Notes: generated by a model from the letters alone, not told the origin. 64,000 bases of DNA from an uncultured Verrucomicrobiae bacterium (GCA_963707025.1 CAVPOM010000005.1:448001-512000); one strand, 5' to 3'. Counted from the first letter of the stretch, positions 13,677 to 52,612 are shown. Program-made: numbers and translations.

Positions 13677-13761
13677 AGAGTGGGAGGCAGGCGTGCCCGG
13701 GCCTTTGCCAAGGGTTGCGGCTGCTTGGGGCCGCCACTCCTGGCAAAGGGAGGGTGAGGTG

Positions 13762-13848
13762 CGGTACACCCGTTACACCGTTACACCTGTTGATTATGAG
13801 CCACTTGCGAATTTCGGCCCCGTTACACCCCGTTACATCCCGATACAA
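13762..13848. repeat. Cluster of six CGTTACAC-like direct repeats (iteron-like)
   Basis: cggtacac 13762, cgttacac 13771, 13779 and 13821, cgttacat 13831, cgatacaa 13841. Confidence 0.8.
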
Positions 13849-14029
13849 TTGGGGCCTGTTTTGGCGCTGAACCCTGCTCAGCGGCCTTTCTGGCCACTGC
13901 CCGCCGGCATTTCCCGACGATCTCCCCGGCATAGGAGATGATAGATCGCGCCGGGATACTCAATGCTTATTTGGCGTGGCATCAGTCAAGCCTGCCGCTA
14001 AAAATGCACCGTCCCAAGTGCAAAACCGG

Positions 14030-14052
14030 GCAAATATATGGTTTGACCCCTT
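14030..14052 (+). repeat. Left copy of 23-bp inverted repeat bracketing the RHS array
   Basis: gcaaatatatggtttgacccctt; 22/23 identical to the reverse complement of 20671-20693. Confidence 0.9.
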
Positions 14053-14055
14053 GCA

Positions 14056-14328
14056 CGACGTTAGATTCCCGTTGCTGTCCAGCTTGGTCGTGGTTGTGTA
14101 AGCCCCGTTGCCGTCCACCCCGTAATCATACTCCACCCCCGCAACCGCCGTCCCCGTCACCCGGTAGGCCAACCCGTCCCCGTATTGCGTGTCCGTCTCC
14201 ATGCTGCCGTCCGGATAATAAATCGTGTGGGTCGGATCTCCGTTGGCGTCGAAACCGTAGGAGTTGGTCGTGATATTGCCCAGGGCATCGGCGGAATGGA
14301 GCAGCCGGCCGGCCGTGTCATAGCTGTT
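14056..14328 (-). pseudogene. Internal RHS/YD-repeat fragment
   Basis: NSYDTAGRLLHSADALGNITTNSY...YPDGS...VTGTAV...YDYGVD...LDSNGNLTS; no credible start or native C-terminus. Confidence 0.8.
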
Positions 14329-14392
14329 GGGCGAAGCACCCTTGCGTCGCAGCGATAATTGACAATGAAAATTGCAAAATGTCATTTTTCTA

Positions 14393-14404
14393 GGACTGAC
14401 CCCT
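14393..14404 (+). repeat. Third TGACCCCT-type end at an internal cassette junction
   Basis: ggactgacccct between the RHS fragment and the immunity gene, preceded by an imperfect palindrome tgaca...tgtca (14360-14384). Confidence 0.55.
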
Positions 14405-14507
14405 CGGCCTTTACCGATCAACCGAATATCTGATTACCATGCTCTACTTTGTGCCAGGCAAACTGAGGATTCCATGCTATTGAACCCACAAAAAACGTCG
14501 AAGAACC

Positions 14508-14906
14508 TCATTTGTCTTCTAGTTGACCCGGACCAAAGACTGTTGTTGTGCCAGCCAATCCGCCAGATCGAATAACCCAGTACCTGCCCTTGGCTTTATC
14601 AAAGAGCACTCGATAAAAAAACATGTCCCTTGCGTTGGGATTCCGAGGCACATCAAAGACCTCAACTCCCGTGCTGGAATCAAGCGGCATATCTTTGCCA
14701 TTCGATATAGGCAGACCCTCAACAGTGAATTCCGCGTGGCCAGCATAACGCTTTGATAGTATTGTTGCCATGTCGTGCGAAGGCGGCGCCTCCATTGGTG
14801 ATTGCAATTTACATCCTGCGAGTATGCTGATGAAGAACAAAATCAGTAGCCCAGGGACGCGGTCATATTTGGTGTTATGGAACAGTATATGGTGGTGCGA
14901 CATCAT
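14508..14906 (-). CDS. Putative immunity lipoprotein for the metallopeptidase-like RHS toxin tip
   Basis: Directly downstream of and overlapping the toxin C-terminus, low GC, hydrophobic stretch ending in lipobox LAGC; start uncertain. Confidence 0.6.
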
Positions 14907-15587
14907 AATATTGCGGTCTGCGATTATTAAGTCCAAGCTTTGCTCTGGCCTGGTCTTCAATGACGATTGTTGGATCGGTTGTCCCCCAGCCGATAGGTAG
15001 TGGGACGTTATTTCTATTAGCATAAATGTTCCAGCAAACAGTCGGATGCAGCTTTTGCTCAATCCCATGACCTACAAGTTCATGCCAAAGAACTACTGAA
15101 AAGGGAGCGCGCTCGTCACGGTATTGTGGTTGTCCAGTGCTGTCCAAGCCGTTATAAACCGGCAAAGGCACGCTGACGTTCTCGTTGATTCGAATCTCTC
15201 GACTCCACCAATGAATGTTCTGTTCGTAGGCGTTGTCTGTGAATGGGGCACGTATCATCTTGTAATTATGAAATGTATCGTTCAGACCCCAACTTAATTC
15301 TGACCACATGCTCCCGTTGCCTGCTTTGTGTATACGAATTTGCTCGTAGTTCCCTTGTAATCCCCAGTATACCCATTTAAGGTCAGCGCCCGTTAGATCA
15401 TCCAAAGCTTTAACTATAGCATTCTTAAATGCTAACGAGCTTTCGCGAGTCGTGATAAGTTCACCCAACACATCAATTTGGTTACAGAGATCGTTCATTG
15501 TAAAGGCGTATAGATTCTGTCCCCCATTTTCTTCGATCGGGTCTCTGGATGGCCACCTTCCCGTGCTCGGGTTGTAATATCTGCAGC
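14875..15587 (-). pseudogene. RHS core end plus C-terminal toxin, putative Zn metallopeptidase (M91/Tox-MPTase-like); cut off from its core by IS4
   Basis: [15 protein letters not shown]...NLYAF...DVLG cleavage region, then VLWHELVGH and [18 protein letters not shown]. Confidence 0.75.
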
Positions 15588-17038
15588 CACAGCCATCCCA
15601 CAGGAAATTGGAAAAAAGTGTTGGCTTGACCATTTGAACCTGCCACAAGGCAGGCATGAAAAACAAAAAAATCAAACCAACACGGTCCCGGTTTAACGTT
15701 TTGCGCCAGATTTGCAATCTCATTCCTGCGCATGAAGTCTCCAAAATAGCGCGGGAGACCGGGGCTCTGGATAAGTCGCGCACCTTCAGTCCGTGGAGTC
15801 ACACGGTCAGTTTGCTGGACGCGCAACTCACCCATTGCATCGGACTCAACGATCTGTGCGACTCGCTGCAATTGCATTCCGGGCCGCTGTCCACTTTGCG
15901 CGGCGCCAGCGCCCCCAGCCGCAACGGCCTCTCCCACGCCAACCGGGAGCGTCCGGCCCAGATGGCCGAACAACTCTTCTGGCGGGTCCTGGAGCATTTG
16001 AAAGCACAGACGCCCGGCTTTGCCGCGGGCCAGCGCCGTGGCCCCGCCTTCCGTTTCAAGATGCCCATCCATGTGATTGATAGCACGACCATGGAACTGG
16101 TGGCCAACTGCCTGGACTGGGCCAAGCACCGCCGGCGCAAGGCCGCCGCCAAAACCCATATGCGGTTGAATCTGCAGAATCTTTTGCCCGGTTTTGTCAT
16201 TGTGGACACTGCCGCCGAGCACGACAACCGACGGGCGCGGGAACTGTGCGCCGACTTGAAGAGCGGCGAAATCGCCTTGTTCGACAAGGGTTATGTGGAC
16301 TTCGGCCACTTGCGGGATTTGGACGGGCGCGGGGTCTTTTGGGTGACGCGGGCCAAGGAGAACATGGGCTATGAGGTGGTGCGGAAAATGCCCGCCTCCA
16401 GAGACCCGAAGATTTTGCGCGACGAAGTGATCGTCCTGAGCAACGAGAACAAACCCGCGCCGGAGTTGATGCGCCGGGTGGTGGCGCTGGTCGAGATTGA
16501 TGGAGAGGAACGGGAAATGACCTTCCTGACCAACAACCTGGAGTGGAGTCCGCGCAGCGTGGCCGACCTTTACCGCTGCCGCTGGCAGATCGAAGTCTTC
16601 TTCAAACAAATCAAGCAGACCTTGCAGTTGGCGGATTTTCTGGGCCACAACGCCAACGCCGTGCGCTGGCAGGTGTGGACGGCGCTGTTGACCTACGTGC
16701 TGTTGCGCTACCTCAGTCACCTCTCCAACTGGGCGCACAGCTTCACCCGGCTGTTCACGATTTTGCGGGCGGCGCTCTGGGAGAAATATGATCTGCTCAA
16801 TTTGCTGGCGTGCTATGGGACAGCAGGCGGCAGCTTTCGCCACTTGGCGCGGCCCGAGCAGGCGTATTTCCCCGGCTTCCAATAAAGCTATGGGACAGCA
16901 CACGCGCCCAAACAGGCGCATACCAAACCCAAAAGCCAAACTCGGAAAAATCAAAATCTCATTTTACCCCGAAGACCAATTAAACCCTTGCAAATGAACA
17001 GGTCAGCACCAGACTTTTCCCCTTATGAGACGGGTGTG
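15588..17038 (+). mobile_element. IS4-family insertion sequence (about 1451 bp)
   Basis: Imperfect terminal IRs cacagccatcccacagg / reverse complement cacacccgtctcataag; RHS homology stops and resumes exactly at these ends; no target duplication seen. Confidence 0.85.
15656..16885 (+). CDS. IS4-family DDE transposase (DUF4372-like N-terminus)
   Basis: IDST, FDKGY, and [12 protein letters not shown] (YREK signature). Confidence 0.93.
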
Positions 17039-18255
17039 TATTTGGTCGAGAAGAAGAATGGATTGATAAGCGCCAATGGGCCGGTGGCGCGGATGAGTTC
17101 GCCAAAGGCCCCGTATTCGCATTGTTCCGCGATACTCCCGTTCGCAGCATTCACCAACGCCGTGACATTGCCATTCCCGTCATAACAGTAGAAATACGTC
17201 CCCGCATTCGCGCCGCTATAAACCCTCATCGAAATTAGCCCGCCCACGCCGCCTGCCCCTTGAGGCGAACCGCTCAGGTCCAGCCCCCATACGAACGAAT
17301 AGACCAGGTTGTCCCCGCCGTCCAATATCGCAACCACGTTCCAGCCGTCATAAACAAACCTGTTTGTAGAGGAATAAACCCAGCCGCTTCCGTTGTTGGT
17401 CGAAACAATCTTCTGGATGCGGCGGCCTATGTAATCATACGTGAAAGCAAGGTTCAACAATGACCCGCTTGGGCTGCCGCTCAGACTTGTCATGTTGGTC
17501 AGGCGGTTCTCGGCGTCCCAAGCATAGCTCCAACGACCATCACTGGTCTGATTTCCATCCAGATCGAAGCCGTAGGTCTCTGGCGTCTGGGGCAGGAAAA
17601 CGTGGCCGATGTTGGTCGTGCCAAACTCGGCGTTGGTCCCGTTGGTCAATGCGGCCAAAGTCGTCACCGTTTGATAGACCGGGCCGGCGGTGTTGGTAAT
17701 CGGCAGTTGCCGCCAGAAATAATTCGTCTTGCGATAGGCCAGGGTTTGGTCCACCCACACGGTCGCCGTGTTGGTCGCGCTGCCGATAATGTCCACCGCG
17801 CCCGGAACCGTCCGACTCGCGTATTCGTTCAAACTGTTGGCGCTGTAACTGGCCTGGCGCTGGTTGGCCCCGTTTTGATCCCCCCCAGCCAACGTCATCC
17901 GGCGGTTGCCGATGTTGTCGAAACCGTAACCGAACTGCTGCCCCGCCACCACCGAATTGTCCGGCCATTTCTTCACCGCATTAGTCACCTGGCCGAGGGC
18001 ATCATACCCATACACCCAATAGGTATTGTCCACAACCGTCACCGCCGTCTTCTGGTTGGCCGCATTGTACTGGTACAGGTAATTAACCACAGATGACCCG
18101 GATGACACTGATGAGATCGCTGTCAGGCGGTTCAAAAAATCGTAACTGTTGCTCGTCGTCATTACCGTCGTTGCATTGCTCGCAAAGGTAATATGATCCA
18201 CCAAAGGCGAATTGGCAAGATACGAATACGTGGCCGAATTGGTGCCGTCGGAGAC
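17039..18255 (-). pseudogene. Orphan RHS core 3-prime segment (module 2), interrupted by IS4
   Basis: YD repeats from VSDGTNSATYSY to INPFFFSTKY; collinear paralog of 18761-20671. Confidence 0.88.
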
Positions 18256-18291
18256 CTCTGCCGCTGCAACATCCATTTCGTAGGCGCGATA

Positions 18292-18756
18292 CTAATGGTT
18301 GCCCTCCAGTTTCTGCATCGGAATGAGAAAACAGCCATTGGTCAAAACTCCTCCTGTGAGCTTCCCTTCGAGTATGAACTGACCTTTGTATTCGTCGTCA
18401 AAATCGGTAATCCGCCCTGACAAGCCTAAACCATACATACCACTGTAATCTCCGTAGACGTTAGAGTATCCCGTGCATTTCAAAGTGAACCTGGTCGACC
18501 AATTCTTGTGAAGCCCGGCGATTTTAATGACGCCGTCATCACCCGATGGTGGAAGGTTCGAGGGGCCGGAGGACAATGACTTGGCGAACATCGCGTCTCG
18601 GTCCTGCCTCCACTCCGTCGTCACCCCTGCCAACGGCTCTTTGGTAGCGGCGTCAACGGCCCTAAAGCAAAGCGTGTGAGTGCAACCCATCGCCAACAAT
18701 GACAGGGTTCCCAACACGATTACCATCCGGACAGGAGAAGGAAGATTTCGATTCAT
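18292..18756 (-). CDS. Putative immunity lipoprotein for the hydrolase-like RHS toxin tip
   Basis: Starts 5 nt after the toxin stop; lipobox AMGC; VDAATKEPLAGV beta-sandwich-like start; low GC. Confidence 0.7.
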   Translation of the reverse strand: MNRNLPSPVRMVIVLGTLSLLAMGCTHTLCFRAVDAATKEPLAGVTTEWRQDRDAMFAKSLSSGPSNLPPSGDDGVIKIAGLHKNWSTRFTLKCTGYSNVYGDYSGMYGLGLSGRITDFDDEYKGQFILEGKLTGGVLTNGCFLIPMQKLEGNH

Positions 18757-18760
18757 AGGG

Positions 18761-20671
18761 CTAGTCCTTCAACACCTTGATCAGCCCCGCTTTGTAGATG
18801 CGTACAATATTGACGTGATTAATGCCGTTATCCTTCGGCCCTGGATTTACGTCCACTTGATCGGGTAGAAGCTTCGGGTTGCCCTTAAGAGGAATCCCGT
18901 GGATATGTATCCCGTGATAGACAGTGTTTCCATGGGTTTCATACCGGCTACTGAATTTTGTGACGCAGCTTGGTACGCTGGTGGGCGGCAATCGAAGCTT
19001 GGCTACCGGATCAATCACGTAGACATCTATTTCATGATTCCGCAGTGAAGAACGGCCAAGCCACCGTGACAGTTTGACAGCGGAAATACCACCCCAACTA
19101 TAGCCAAAAATCTTGATCGGCTCGGTGGGATTGAGGTTGCAATCGCCTGTGCCGGGTTCGGCGAGGAAATACTTGAGGAGATATTGATACGGATCCATTA
19201 TGTCGAGGGAACGGTATATGTGATCTCCGGCCCCAACGGCATCCGCAATTTCCTTCATTTGCTTATTGGCCGCGTTTGGAAAATTCCACCATGTGTCAGC
19301 CCCGTAAAATCCAACGATGACAAGTCCCAAATCATCAATCTGGTCAACAGGGTCATTCCCCACAAAGCCATACAGATTCGGCCCTCCTTCATCTTCCTCT
19401 GCCGGGTCCCGTCCAATCCAGCGTCCTGTTGAGGGGTTGTAATATCTGGCACCGTAGTAATAAAGGCCGGACTCCCAATCGTAAAACTTGGTGGAGAACA
19501 TGAAGGGGTTGAGCTTCGCCATGGGGCCTGTTGCTCTGATGACTTCACCGAAGGGGCCATATTCGTAATTGGCGGAAACGGCTCCTGTCGCGGCATTGAC
19601 AAGCGCAGTCACGTTTCCATTTCCATCATACGCGACAAAATGTACTGCGTTGCTCACGATGTTCTCAGTCAGCAAACCGCCTACACCTCCGGCGCCCTGC
19701 ATGTTCCCGCTCAGATCCGTTCCCCAGACGAATGAAGCCAGGAGAGCGGATGCAGGATTGAGAATCGCCACCGGATTCCATCCGTCATACACAAAACGGT
19801 TGGTGGATTGGGCGGCATAGCTCGTCCCGCTGTTCGTGGTCGTCGAAACAATCTTTTGAACCCTCCGCCCCATGTAATCGTACGTGAAATCCAATTTGTA
19901 CTGCGACGCGGCCGGGGTGTTGGTCAGGCTGGTCATGTTGACCAAGCGATTCTCCCCGTCCCAAGCGTAGGTCCAACGCCCGTCATTGGTCATGTTCCCA
20001 TCCGCATCATACCCGAATGTCTCCGGGTTCTTCGCCACAAACACGCTCCCCGCCACCGTCGTCTGCCCCGGCGCCGTCACCGTCACATTCGTCCACAACG
20101 CCGCCGAGGTGTTGTTGACCGCCAACTGCTCCCGGAAATACTCCCACTTCTGATACGCCGCCTGCCCGTTCACGCTCACTGTGTTGGTCGCCAGGCCCAG
20201 CCCCATCACGTCCGCATATCCCGGCACCCCGCGGCTGGCGATCTGGTTGAGCAGGTTGTTCGTGTAACCGGCCGCGCGCAGATTCGCCCCGGTCTGGTCG
20301 CCCCCGGTCTGCATCCCCGTGCGGTTGCCGATGGTGTCGAAGGCGTAAGCAAACTGTTGCCCCGCGTAAGGGGTACCGTCCCAGAAGTATTTCTTGGCGC
20401 TGGTCAATTGCCCCAGCGCGTCATACCCATAGAGCCAATAACTCCCGTCAATCAGCGTGACCCGCGTGCGCTGGCTCGCGGCGTTGTATTGGTAATTGAA
20501 ATTCAGTGCCGAGGTATTCCCCGTCAGGCGGTTGACATAATCGTATGTGTTCTGATTGGTCATCACGGCGGCGCCGTTGTGCGCAAAGACAATATGGTCC
20601 ACCAGCGCCGAATTGGCAAGGTACGAATACGTCGCGGAATTCGTTCCGTCCGAGACCACGCGAAGGCGCGA
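18761..20671 (-). pseudogene. Orphan RHS module 1: core 3-prime segment plus alpha/beta-hydrolase (lipase-like) toxin tip
   Basis: YD repeats, FSTKFYDWESGLYYYGARYYNP...DP...NLYGFVGNDPVDQIDDLG core; tip has GYSWGG (GxSxG), IDPV and NHVNI; N-terminal RHS part absent. The frame stays open through the flanking repeat to GTG 20695. Confidence 0.85.
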
Positions 20672-20693
20672 AGGGGTCAAACCATGTATTTGC
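20671..20693 (-). repeat. Right copy of 23-bp inverted repeat bracketing the RHS array
   Basis: aaggggtcaaaccatgtatttgc. Confidence 0.9.
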
Positions 20694-28283: not shown

Positions 28284-30623
28284 CTATGGATAAATGGTGC
28301 GGTAGAAGCCCATTCCTCCGCTGGGAGTGTCGGTGTATTGGAAGGCACCGGTGCTGCCAGCGGTCACGCTTGCGCCAGGGATGTCCTGCCAGTTGGCCGG
28401 ATTGATCGTGGGCGAATGCTGCACGCGATAGGTGTAGCCCGGGATGCCAGCCCCATTGATGAGGTAGGAGCCATTGCCAAGACTCGTGATCGTCAGATTT
28501 TGCCCTGCGGAGGCGTCCACTGCAATGGCCACGGTAATCGTTCCCACGGCGCTGCCACCATAGCCGTCGGTAACCGTGTAGGTGAAAGAATCGGCGTTGG
28601 TGAAGCCCTCGGCTGGAGCGTAGAATACCCAGCCATCGGCGACGGTGATGGCGCCGCCGTTGGCGCTCGTCGAACTGGGGGTGATATTGAGCGCATCGCC
28701 GTCGGCGTCGCTGCAGCTCGCCAGTATTGTCGCCAGGCTGACTTTCACGCCCAGGGTCGGGTATCGCTGGATGGTGAGGTTGCCCGCCATGGGCGGCGTA
28801 TTGATGACCTCCGCCGGCGCCAGGGAATTGGTGATGCCGGCGAAGTTCTGATCGCCGGCGTATTCGGCGACCACCGTGTTCGAACCGTGCGGCAGACTGT
28901 TGGTGGCAAACGCAGCCACGCCACCGGACAACGTGCCCGCACCACCGATACTGCCGTTAACACGAAAGTTCACTGTGCCGCTGGGCGCGCCGACGCCAGG
29001 AGGGACAGGGCTGACCGTCACGGTGAACGTCACGTTCGCTCCCGGCAGCGCCGGATTAGACGAAGACACTATCACACCGGTCGTGTTCGCCTGGGCCACG
29101 TTGATCGTCACGGTGGGCGTGGCCGTCGTGTAGTCGGTTGTGTCCGTGGGCGTGAACGTGGCCGAAAGGGTCTGACCGCTGCCCGCGTGCAGGACTGTCC
29201 CGGCCACCGGACTATAAACAAATGCGCCGGGAATATTGGCCGTCGCATCCAGTTGCGTCCCGCTCAAGGCCGTGCCATAGACAATGCCAGCCGGATTGCC
29301 CCACGTAATCACCGGCGCCGCCTGCGCCACGTTAATCGTCACGGTGGGCGTGGCCGTCGTGTAGTCGGTTGTGTCCGTGGGTGTGAACGTGGCCGAAAGG
29401 GTCTGACCGCTGCCCGCGTGCAGGACCGTCCCGGCCACCGGACTATAAACAAATGCGCCGGGAACATTGGCCGTCGCATCCAGTTGCGTCCCGCTCAAGG
29501 CCGTGCCATAGACAATGCCAGCCGGATTGGCCCACGTAATCACTGGCGCCGCCTGGGCCACGTTGATCGTCACGGTGGGCGTGGCCGTCGTGTAGTCGGT
29601 CGTATCCGTGGGTGTGAACGTGGCCGAAAGGGTCTGACCGCTGCCCGCGTGCAGGACTGTCCCGGCCACCGGACTATAAACAAATGCGCCGGGAACGTTG
29701 GCCGTCGCATCCAGTTGTGTCCCGCTCAAGGCCGTGCCATAGACAATCCCCGCCGGATTCGCCCACGTAATCACTGGCGCCGCCTGCGCCACGTTGATCG
29801 TCACGTTGGTTGTGACCGGTAGAAAAGTTGTGGTGTCTGTTGGGGTAAAGGTGACAGAGAGCGTCTGACCGGAACCGGCATTCAAGATTGTGCCGGCAGC
29901 GGGGGTGTAAGTGAAGGTGCCGGGCACATTGGTCGAGTCGTAAGTCGCGGTGGCGTTCAATTGCGAGGCTCCAAGCGCCGTGCCATAAACGATGCCCGCC
30001 GGATTCGCCCAGGCCAGCGTTGGATAAACCTGACCGACAATGGTCAGCGACCATTCCGTAAGCTCGTTGGTGCCGCCCGACTGGAGGTCGGCCAGGAAAA
30101 GTGTCCATTGGCCGGCGGCGTTAAGGCCGTTGAAATTTGCCAGCGCGGTGGTGCGCGGCGAGGTGTCCAGGACGGTGGCCGGGTCCACATTCCGGTCGTC
30201 CGGTTGCCAGGTGCCGGTGAGCGGCGAGCCAGCCGCGGGCGTCGTCTTGTTCTGATAGAGATGAATGTCCCCGTTGGCCGCGCTGTCCTGAAAAGTCACG
30301 TCGAAGCCGCTGTCGGCATATCCTGCAGGATTGGCGGCAGTCTCGCCCGGACGATTGAGGAGCACAGTAAAGCCACTGGCGTGGGTCACGTAACCGTAGA
30401 GGTCGCCGTTGAATTCGCCGGTGGTCTTGAGATGCACCGTCATGGAGGTGATGTTGCCGATGGCTGAATTGAGGGTGCGCACCTCGCTCAGACCGGAAGG
30501 GTTGCCGTCCGGCACCAGGCGGTTGGTGGTGAAGGTGTAGGTTTCGGTGGTTTGCGCTTGAAGGAGCGGCGGTGTGGCCGCTCCAAGGAGCATTAACAGG
30601 AATAGGATTGTCAGTTTCTTCAT
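28284..30623 (-). CDS. Secreted protein: P-domain-like head, four ~77-aa repeats, Ig-like and cadherin-like domains, C-terminal FYR motif
   Basis: Signal peptide MKKLTILF; head with FNGDLYGY...FNGLNAAGQWTLFLAD; repeats ITWANPAGIVYGTALSGTQL; AEYAGDQNF; DSFTYTVTD; ends FYRTIYP. Confidence 0.8.
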   Translation of the reverse strand: MKKLTILFLLMLLGAATPPLLQAQTTETYTFTTNRLVPDGNPSGLSEVRTLNSAIGNITSMTVHLKTTGEFNGDLYGYVTHASGFTVLLNRPGETAANPAGYADSGFDVTFQDSAANGDIHLYQNKTTPAAGSPLTGTWQPDDRNVDPATVLDTSPRTTALANFNGLNAAGQWTLFLADLQSGGTNELTEWSLTIVGQVYPTLAWANPAGIVYGTALGASQLNATATYDSTNVPGTFTYTPAAGTILNAGSGQTLSVTFTPTDTTTFLPVTTNVTINVAQAAPVITWANPAGIVYGTALSGTQLDATANVPGAFVYSPVAGTVLHAGSGQTLSATFTPTDTTDYTTATPTVTINVAQAAPVITWANPAGIVYGTALSGTQLDATANVPGAFVYSPVAGTVLHAGSGQTLSATFTPTDTTDYTTATPTVTINVAQAAPVITWGNPAGIVYGTALSGTQLDATANIPGAFVYSPVAGTVLHAGSGQTLSATFTPTDTTDYTTATPTVTINVAQANTTGVIVSSSNPALPGANVTFTVTVSPVPPGVGAPSGTVNFRVNGSIGGAGTLSGGVAAFATNSLPHGSNTVVAEYAGDQNFAGITNSLAPAEVINTPPMAGNLTIQRYPTLGVKVSLATILASCSDADGDALNITPSSTSANGGAITVADGWVFYAPAEGFTNADSFTYTVTDGYGGSAVGTITVAIAVDASAGQNLTITSLGNGSYLINGAGIPGYTYRVQHSPTINPANWQDIPGASVTAGSTGAFQYTDTPSGGMGFYRTIYP
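29089..29781. repeat. Three near-identical 231-bp coding tandem repeats (a diverged fourth extends to about 30030)
   Basis: Unit starts at 29089, 29320, 29551 and 29782. Confidence 0.92.
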
Positions 30624-43203: not shown

Positions 43204-43263
43204 GGTAGGGCGCGCACTCCGTGCGCGCCGCGGCGGGCAATCCCGGCCTGCCGGGACCCTACC
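43204..43263. repeat. GTAG-type REP doublet
   Basis: ggtagggcgcgcactccgtgcgcgccg...ccctacc; first 36 nt match the reverse complement of 49355-49390 at 35/36. Confidence 0.8.
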
Positions 43264-49199: not shown

Positions 49200-49669
49200 A
49201 CGCCGATTTTGAAAAACACCTGCAAGGCCAGCCCCTGCGCGAACTCCCCCGCGACTGGCGCGCTGAAATCCTGGCCGCCGCCTCTGGCCTTCGAGACCGT
49301 GGCGACGGTGCGACGTTATTGACGGATGAGGACAAGGCAGGGCGGGCAGTCCTCTGCCCGCCGCGGCGCGCACGGAGTGCGCGCCCTGCCTCCTTAGACG
49401 GAATCTCCACCTGGCCCTCGTTACGAGGCTGGGCGGCCCTGGCCGCAGTGTGGGTTGTGATTTTCCTGCTCCACCTGACCGCAGCGGACAAACCGCGCCT
49501 GGCCGGGAATTCACCTGGAATGACGATGCGATCCTTTGCCATGTTGCACGAACAAACGCTGATGATGGCCGAGACCCTCGGCCAATCCAATCCTCACCAA
49601 CCGGCCGCCGCCGACCCGGCTCCGCCGAGACCCCGGAGCGAAATAGCGCACAGACAACTCATCGGCTGA
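49196..49669 (+). CDS. Putative anti-sigma small membrane protein with an in-frame REP insertion
   Basis: ATGA overlap with the sigma gene; FEKHLQGQPLRELPRDWRAEIL, one TM (WAALAAVWVVIFLLH). Confidence 0.7.
   Translation: MNADFEKHLQGQPLRELPRDWRAEILAAASGLRDRGDGATLLTDEDKAGRAVLCPPRRARSARPASLDGISTWPSLRGWAALAAVWVVIFLLHLTAADKPRLAGNSPGMTMRSFAMLHEQTLMMAETLGQSNPHQPAAADPAPPRPRSEIAHRQLIG
49336..49390. repeat. REP doublet inside coding sequence
   Basis: ggcagggcgggcagtcctctgcccgccgcggcgcgcacggagtgcgcgccctgcc; same family as 43204-43263. Confidence 0.8.
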
Positions 49670-52159: not shown

Positions 52160-52612
52160 ATGAAAAAACTATTTCTCGCCTTGCTTGGAATCGCCGGAGC
52201 CAGCCTCGCGGCTCAAGCCCAGTCGGAGGGCATTTCCTTCTACCTGCAACCGGACAACAGCCCCATCATTGTGGGAGGCGCTGCGCCAGTCTATGCTCAA
52301 CCTGTTTATACCCAGCAAATTGCATACGAAACACCAGTCCAGTACAACGCACCGGTGCAATACGTTGCGCCAGTCCAGTACAATGCGCCGGTCCAGTACA
52401 ATGCGCCGGCGCAATACAACGCGCCGGTCCAATACAATGCTCCGGTCATACAGAACGCGCCGGTGTATTACACCACTGACCCCTGCCAGGCAGAACCGGT
52501 CTATTCCGCTCCGACGGATTGCGTTGATTACTCATATTCGACCGTCCAAGTCATTCGCTTTGGCGGAGCCCAGGCGCGCCAGCAGGGCTACAGCTTCGGT
52601 GCGGGGCGTTGA
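52160..52612 (+). CDS. Secreted protein with PVQYNA hexapeptide repeats
   Basis: Signal peptide; about 7-8 copies of an 18-bp unit at 52334-52470. Confidence 0.8.
   Translation: MKKLFLALLGIAGASLAAQAQSEGISFYLQPDNSPIIVGGAAPVYAQPVYTQQIAYETPVQYNAPVQYVAPVQYNAPVQYNAPAQYNAPVQYNAPVIQNAPVYYTTDPCQAEPVYSAPTDCVDYSYSTVQVIRFGGAQARQQGYSFGAGR

Follow-up and report, generated by a model that had tools for sequence, protein, structure and literature searches.

TIRtrons and their transposase TIRYT were described by Di Nocera et al. 2013 (PMC3733652), and Quentin et al. 2018 (PMC6006769) identify them with Y1 subclass 2.1. The portions of these papers available to us present features that recur in the elements studied here: a Y1/HUH gene flanked by terminal inverted repeats (TIRs) that carry a GGGGWSAS-type motif, and repeats dispersed singly, in pairs and in groups; a C-terminal helical extension, also presented there, has an apparent counterpart in the modelled enzyme. 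Cargo, a rule for the junctions, duplication of the target and a connection to rhs or toxin genes are all absent from the same portions, the word 'rhs' has 0 hits in them, and the available part of Bertels 2017 adds nothing on TIRYT ends. Orphan Rhs/CdiA arrays have been attributed to C-terminal displacement (Jackson et al. 2009, PMC2935791; Poole et al. 2011, PMC3150448), a model in which circles form by homologous recombination and, in the accessible part of PMC2935791, no enzyme is named. Here we analyse a 64,000-nt stretch of an uncultured Verrucomicrobiae bacterium (the window; GCA_963707025.1 CAVPOM010000005.1:448001-512000), in which an orphan array of RHS toxin-immunity modules is bordered by TIRs of TIRtron elements. 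The element family is known, as are orphan arrays; their link is apparently new. The locus resembles such arrays in its modules, each with a 5′-truncated core, a variable low-GC tip and a small gene downstream. Unlike classical arrays, its modules end at transposon repeats, may be out of order and lie away from a full-length parent, and unlike published TIRtrons, the ends here are fused to toxin genes, cargo is bracketed and a composite insertion is found.

A 23-nt repeat at 14030-14052 returns in inverted form at 20671-20693 with 22/23 positions identical, and the complementarity of the two copies ends at the 23-mer borders. RHS coding sequence abuts both copies on the minus strand, where SRLRVVSDG begins at the right repeat and DSNGNLTS stops 3 nt short of the left one. 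This strand carries, in turn, the right repeat, RHS module A, predicted immunity gene A, module B, predicted immunity gene B, a third repeat (14393-14404), an out-of-order mid-core fragment, the left repeat and 24 codons of a transposase gene. A model built from TIRtron ends outside this genome gives the third repeat a score of 15.7. Aligned to full-length relatives, the mid-core fragment falls ~450-550 residues upstream of the point at which modules A and B begin. The repeats, the RHS coding sequence at both of them, the third end and the out-of-order fragment agree with the original prediction, made from the sequence alone, as does the outward reading of the ends, opposite to a Tn3-like element. 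The orientation arises because both copies are outer ends of element relics and the array is the cargo between them. The prediction also recognised two orphan modules, which are present, but it missed that the second is split by a 1,451-bp IS4-family insertion sequence (IS). It further held that the window encodes no enzyme; a broken copy of the cognate transposase, reduced to 24 codons, lies in the window, and an intact enzyme is available in trans (C16:111532-112476). Nothing points to the 'guiding' of cassettes by the repeats that it had proposed, and overall its interpretation is partly supported.

The window repeats are the terminal repeats of TIRtron elements encoding the TIRYT Y1/HUH transposase, in line with the enzyme type originally suggested. 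The repeat begins GGGGTCAA, and its last position deviates from the published consensus GGGG[AT][CG]A[CG]. With a matrix built from the motif, 69 genome sites score at least 20, versus 1 in the reversed genome; after subtypes were added the number rose to 107, and 23 sites fall within 3 mismatches of the window repeat. Eighteen inward pairs include 12 of 63-153 nt, the size of miniature inverted-repeat transposable elements (MITEs), and 5 of about 1 kb. TIR pairs flank Y1 genes of 309-315 aa at C16:111532-112476, C12:50108 and C12:98536, and a damaged copy lies on C6. Exactly the window repeat type stands at both ends of the intact C16 element, and window positions 13911-14056 can be aligned to the 5′ end of the TIRYT elements on C6 and C16. 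No intact element is present at the array, where the ends face cargo and only 24 gene codons remain. From 29 relatives a further 47 TIRtron ends were recovered, and TIRYT homologues occur in 69/121 genomes of the order, with 1-18 matches per genome.

TIRYT matches PF01797 above the cut-off, and residues H60, H62 and Y121 are invariant in 51/51 aligned sequences. Its structure model (pLDDT 90.5) has TnpA-REP (4ER8) as the best match in the PDB, also matches IS608/ISDra2 TnpA, and contains a confident helical bundle at residues 232-311, with no helix-turn-helix Pfam match at E<=0.01. The modelled catalytic fold and the HuH/Tyr motifs are thus those of REPtrons (RAYT/TnpA-REP) and of IS200/IS605 TnpA, and cutting and rejoining of single-stranded DNA (ssDNA) would be expected. 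TIRYT differs from both in its TIRs, which replace GTAG or subterminal hairpins, in its about double length and in scoring below both NCBIfam cut-offs. The score for NF047646 (REPtron) is 55 bits against a cut-off of 80, and the gene is flanked by TIRs, not by GTAG repetitive extragenic palindrome (REP) hairpins, which sets the element apart from REPtrons. Nor is the array a Tn3/DDE composite, since its ends face outward and the only DDE gene belongs to the IS4 element, which has its own ends. TIRYT represents a known transposon family, with an activity predicted from sequence. Assembly error could be suspected in a repeat-rich genome that is 88% complete and in 18 contigs. Against this stand the control counts above and a contig of public run X1 (perhaps the same sample as the assembly) that crosses the left junction (13864-14133) with zero differences. 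The same architecture is also found in unrelated genomes, and the bracketed layout of the window is seen again at L129, L200 and L342, as well as on C6 and C12. A chance match or artefact is extremely improbable.

Other arrangements of TIRs and TIRYT genes were noted. An isochorismatase gene takes the place of the transposase inside a ~1-kb inward TIR pair (G000 C13:107301-108361), forming a cargo-only element. TIRYT genes are repeatedly truncated after 18-24 codons beside RHS or other cargo (window 13911-13982, G000 C16:109463, L032, L076), and the truncation point in L032 is fused to another TIR end. A Y1 transposase domain lies in frame inside a 1,170-aa open reading frame (ORF; G000 C3:324218-324505), and a PemK pair follows a TIR at G000 C18:669031.

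TIRs and TIRYT genes are strongly enriched at RHS loci; the original prediction had named enrichment of the motif at RHS/immunity junctions as a test. In this genome, 4/6 RHS loci lie <=2.5 kb from a TIR, versus 3.7% of random points. We then compared 60 RHS-core regions, chosen among the 150 matches listed of 261 in 62 TIRYT-bearing genomes of the order, with 40 mobile-integrase regions and 30 shorter regions of top-scoring (XerC/D-like) integrases. TIRs are present in 12/60 RHS regions versus 2/40 and 0/30 of the controls, respectively (Fisher p 0.04 for RHS versus mobile integrases and 0.003 pooled, values that are overstated because the genomes are related), and TIRYT sequence in 8/60 versus 0/70. 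The distance between the two genes was measured in 15 Verrucomicrobiota genomes from across the phylum with complete match lists, picked for the presence of both genes, which leaves distance unfixed. Of 32 TIRYT genes, 13 lie <=5 kb from an RHS core (0.26 expected), in 6/12 genomes, while integrases do so in 5/116 cases (1.28 expected); weak Y1 matches, counted apart, do so in 1/12.

The association is also polar. Across 28 loci, 36/37 TIRYT copies are co-oriented with the nearest RHS gene and 26/37 lie downstream of it, a count that contains one duplicate row (L264/L317) and leaves a weak opposite fragment (L114) below the filter. Lone TIRYT genes lie on the G-rich strand in 4/11 loci, a weak control, and 37/69 flanking ORFs share the strand, a comparison that is weak in GC-rich DNA. 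TIRYT is associated with polymorphic-toxin arrays in a polar manner, in at least two phyla, and apparently this has gone undescribed before. An alternative account holds that homologous recombination alone builds the arrays, and that selfish TIRtrons and MITEs survive in dispensable low-GC DNA, where they trim their neighbours by adjacent deletion and move no toxin module usefully. Against it stand the integrases, found near RHS genes about tenfold less often than TIRYT genes, and the co-orientation of 36/37 copies, compared with 4/11 lone genes on the G-rich strand.

One repeat-bounded block occupies an otherwise empty site. This 7,882-bp block on C12 is bordered by a TIR on either side and holds an intact TIRYT gene as well as an RHS-immunity module, the latter between outward-facing ends. 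It is absent in 5/5 congeners, in which larC and the next gene are immediate neighbours. At the block, a stretch of ~30 bp from the 3′ end of larC occurs twice (27/30 identical); an earlier conclusion that there is no target duplication was revised when this empty site revealed it. Congener RHS modules at sites that are empty in this genome carry a TIR at the 5′ junction in L340 and L342. At C12, L129 and L342, TIR-bounded RHS modules occupy single sites among conserved housekeeping genes and have no full-length parent in the vicinity, a further argument against passive survival. The window RHS clade likewise has no full-length parent in the 88%-complete assembly, whose sole full-length RHS (C9) is 26% identical to it. 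For the window locus no empty site was found, none of the five congeners having both flanks together, and G064 had no relatives in the genome collection. The inversion, excision or circle joints at 14052/20671 that the original prediction proposed are absent from the contigs of four runs, which were covered as contigs only, runs with a small share being excluded. The one RHS joint in these contigs, 19480 to 17037, is what a paralogue lacking the IS, for example that on C13, would show.

RHS homology breaks at the repeats both here and in other genomes, as foreseen. In a junction set of 61 metagenome and genome loci of the window RHS clade (three duplicates dropped), an outward TIR stands at 4/51 internal RHS 5′ ends and at 3/13 3′ truncations, versus 0.76% of random windows, and an inward TIR at 3/51 of the 5′ ends. 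Several TIR-RHS junctions fall at YD-repeat codons (L129, L304, L342). L304 contains a complete TIRtron with a full RHS-immunity pair on one side and, on the other, an orphan whose start coincides with the element end and with a YD codon. Inspection of the locus maps by eye revealed no RHS gene merely interrupted by a TIRtron, which again speaks against elements that only persist in dispensable DNA. We rejected the shared start of modules A, B and the C12 module as a TIRYT target site. TIR-free orphans of G302 begin close to that position in the core, and a common start is therefore no evidence of targeting; in addition, an inherited linker that contains an ATG is present in both the C12 and the G123 module.

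Conservation across 153 ends stops ~11 nt past the G of GAC. AC is found at offsets 8-10 in 41% of these ends versus 16% of controls, and in the GACAC subtype it stands at one offset in 18/28 ends. Reiterated tails mark 41/153 ends versus 25/320 controls. AC or C is also common to several junctions with a readable target allele, namely a MITE in the C12 TIRYT gene, larC and L032. Some tail repeats are nested and shrink along the end (G000 C6:59640-59667 and C11:22110-22138; L201:3648-3700), as if a free 3′ end had been rejoined or re-primed several times.

Y1/HUH enzymes cut ssDNA, hold the 5′ end on a tyrosine and join the free 3′-OH. From sequence comparison, we consider it probable that TIRYT joins element ends to other DNA and thereby mobilises and reorders RHS toxin-immunity modules. 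TIRYT would cut ssDNA just outside the repeat, 3′ of a C and mostly of AC, in the short tail past the GAC[AC]C core, and the freed 3′ end of the tail would be joined to DNA cut after AC or C. Each end could act alone, producing either an adjacent deletion or a circle: joining downstream would delete, whereas joining upstream into an RHS core would excise core, tip, immunity gene and element together. Recombination of such a circle into a resident RHS core would leave full RHS, immunity gene, TIRtron and an orphan fused to the downstream end, the order seen in L304 and L311. A circle opened inside the element would give end, cargo, and end with the 5′ part of the transposase, as in the window, and two ends acting together could insert a composite block, as on C12. 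Homologous recombination through the core likely still performs the tip swap.

Comparable arrangements extend beyond the phylum. Eight TIRYT-like loci from a plasmid collection were examined, of which 2 lie in polymorphic-toxin arrays, 3 beside type II toxin-antitoxin genes and 3 in other settings; the TIRYT-like genes on Skermanella, Rhodospirillum and Iodobacter plasmids (L366, L369, L370) adjoin MazEF, Doc and HipA. A P. aeruginosa CdiA orphan array (L365, NZ_CP116719.1:5239-23736; a linear 24-kb record, plasmid by label and perhaps chromosomal) contains three TIRtrons and several 170-190-bp MITEs, in one orientation and at most cassette joints. Five of its 7 listed right ends run straight into start-less frames of 33-131 codons, two of which are named toxin domains (EndoU and nuclease). 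In Pseudoalteromonas (L364, NZ_CP045419.1:657598-670242), nine same-strand TIRs with reiterated tails lie between immunity-type genes, one of them Imm26; this immunity array is downstream of a large toxin gene and is followed by a broken TIRYT. A phage search returned zero TIRYT matches in 50,697 records, and three viral-contig TIRYT loci were found.

The regular, unidirectional alternation of elements and cassettes in the CdiA array, the same-strand TIRs among immunity-type genes, the downstream position of most TIRYT copies and the small cargo enclosed by tandem TIRtrons are what would be expected of a dedicated cassette system. TIRYT would then be a domesticated, integron-like HUH recombinase, kept for acquiring immunity genes and toxin tips, with the repeats as cassette-border sites, and would supply the circles of the C-terminal displacement model. 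We regard such domestication as improbable, since TIRYT is multicopy and often broken across the order, like a selfish element, 19/32 copies are not near RHS genes, and junction positions in RHS are variable.

Several observations weigh against mobilisation by TIRYT, some of them in favour of passive survival. No TIRYT activity is reported in the available parts of PMC3733652 or PMC6006769. Most RHS truncations are TIR-free, 44/51 truncated 5′ ends having no called TIR in either orientation; among the four outward calls that of L249 is doubtful, and L035 and L221 are near misses. The right junction of the window is without AC, and the congener modules of L337 and L339 have no TIR at the 5′ junction. 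Classical TIR-free orphan arrays exist in G302, G142 and G362, genomes in which no TIRYT was found, so TIRYT is at most one route to such arrays. The cargo is mixed as well, because 3 of the 15 outward-facing pairs in the genome enclose RHS and others AbiGi, UDG-like, sigma/YCII, Kelch or unknown genes. IS4 copies cluster near TIRs too (9/47 within 2.5 kb), which points to a general hot-spot effect, and interrupt two RHS loci. In G333, all nine TIRYT genes and all RHS cores are apparently on the leading strand, if dnaA marks the origin, and replication bias may therefore add to the co-orientation; GC skew in the window genome is too noisy for strand assignment, and a strand-bias scan with an 8-mer motif is informative only for G339. 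Six of the 8 plasmid-collection loci lie outside toxin arrays, and relatedness inflates the significance of the enrichment. We regard passive survival as the less likely explanation and mobilisation by TIRYT as the preferred one.

TIRtrons in toxin arrays share with integrons and polyimmunity loci the same-orientation cassettes, the short repeated sites between them and the adjoining recombinase gene. They differ in using an HUH transposase, not a tyrosine recombinase, in having sites that are element ends and apparently not attC hairpins, and in cassettes that are often gene fragments with variable breakpoints; the only integrase trace beside the array is the 47-aa remnant of Table 1. In IS91/ISCR one-ended transposition and in composite transposons, an HUH element or paired ends carry adjacent DNA; the IS91/ISCR enzymes are rolling-circle Y2/Y1 proteins acting on oriIS/terIS ends. 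Among published toxin loci, XerC/D genes adjoin polyimmunity loci in the part of PMC3482391 available, and disruption by IS elements or recombinases of the XerC/D type, and no Y1 transposase, appear at these loci in the accessible texts of Poole 2011, Zhang 2012, Mercy 2016, a study of bee-gut Rhs and a Stenotrophomonas preprint of 2026. In a literature search over freely accessible main texts, TIRYT was found only in PMC3733652 and PMC6006769, with no link to rhs or contact-dependent inhibition. Separately, tyrosine integrases stand among short RHS-core fragments at G193:C1:18050-27091, G198:C4:63802-83050 and G196:C1:2353127-2358153, loci that may be integrons with RHS toxin tips as cassettes.

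Table 1 Features of the array and its borders, in window coordinates
Feature	Position	Strand	Remarks
GTTACAC-rich dispersed repeat, ~100 bp	13747..13850		53 BLAST matches in genome, 14 at <=800 bp from a TIR site
5′ remnant of TIRYT Y1/HUH transposase gene, 24 codons	13911..13982	-	79% identity to residues 1-24 of the intact C16 enzyme
Left TIR	14030..14052	+	Upstream end of a truncated TIRtron; outer end fused to RHS fragment
Out-of-order mid-core RHS fragment, both ends truncated	14053..14337	-	PF05593
Third TIR, other TIRtron subtype, with short interior remnant	14340..14404	+	Core 14393-14404; outer end toward immunity gene B
Predicted immunity gene B	14508..14874	-	Suggested by its place behind the predicted toxin tip and by 49% GC
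Orphan RHS module B, 3′ part: core end and predicted toxin tip	14875..15587	-	TIGR03696 positions 32-75; 46% GC
IS4-family insertion sequence	15588..17038	+	1,451 bp; transposase 15656-16885; PF01609, PF14294; NF033592 above cut-off
Orphan RHS module B, 5′ part (core)	17039..18256	-	DNA identity 96% to C13 module, 84% to C12 module
Predicted immunity gene A, lipoprotein-like signal	18292..18756	-	Suggested by position and sequence
Orphan RHS module A, 5′-truncated core fused to right TIR	18761..20670	-	TIGR03696 above cut-off
Right TIR, solo end	20671..20693	-	Joined at its outer end to RHS module A
Tyrosine-integrase N-terminal (SAM-like) domain remnant, 47 aa	21100..21240	+	PF13102 E=5e-4, below cut-off

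The features of the array are listed in Table 1. Tip B and the immunity genes have a GC content of 46-52%, against 60-62% in the flanks. The tip of module A (about 18761-19294) has a GxSxG motif and Atlas matches of 0.90-0.92 to alpha/beta hydrolase clusters, and is also present on three other RHS proteins, while the tip of module B is without a Pfam match. Position suggests an immunity role for both small genes, whose products have zero Pfam or NCBIfam matches. The start of immunity gene B is uncertain; the longest ORF spans 14508-15068, and its hydrophobic stretch ends in Cys. The IS4 element that interrupts module B has 47 near-full copies in the genome and is unrelated to the TIRs. The region of the third TIR has two similar stretches of 33-35 bp elsewhere in the genome.

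The dispersed repeat left of the array is likely the end of another mobile element, and forms composite elements of ~500-650 bp with TIRs on C2, C9, C12, C18, C3 and C13. A ~400-bp non-coding repeat with a long hairpin recurs 3′ of RHS immunity genes in the genus (G000 C13:132057-132457 and C9:29883-30046; L337, L340). Farther along, the window holds a REP-like, GTAG-tagged inverted pair of 36 nt (43204-43239 and 49355-49390, 97%, 6.1 kb between) and coding tandem repeats, with three 231-bp units in an Ig-domain surface protein (29088-29818) and six 18-bp units at 52325-52468.

How orphan toxin-immunity modules are cut out, transported and stacked is an open question, as the standard model needs circles. 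Our finding joins this question to that of the role of TIRYT. With the enzyme named, its DNA ends defined and a rule for the cut predicted, both questions become testable. A further gain would be a compact enzyme able to join an end of 20-30 nt to targets of short homology. More tentatively, TIRYT may be a widespread HUH recombinase that builds and shuffles Rhs arrays in Verrucomicrobiota and Gammaproteobacteria and CdiA arrays in Pseudomonas, in an integron-like manner by ssDNA cut-and-join, and so might be the source of the displacement circles.

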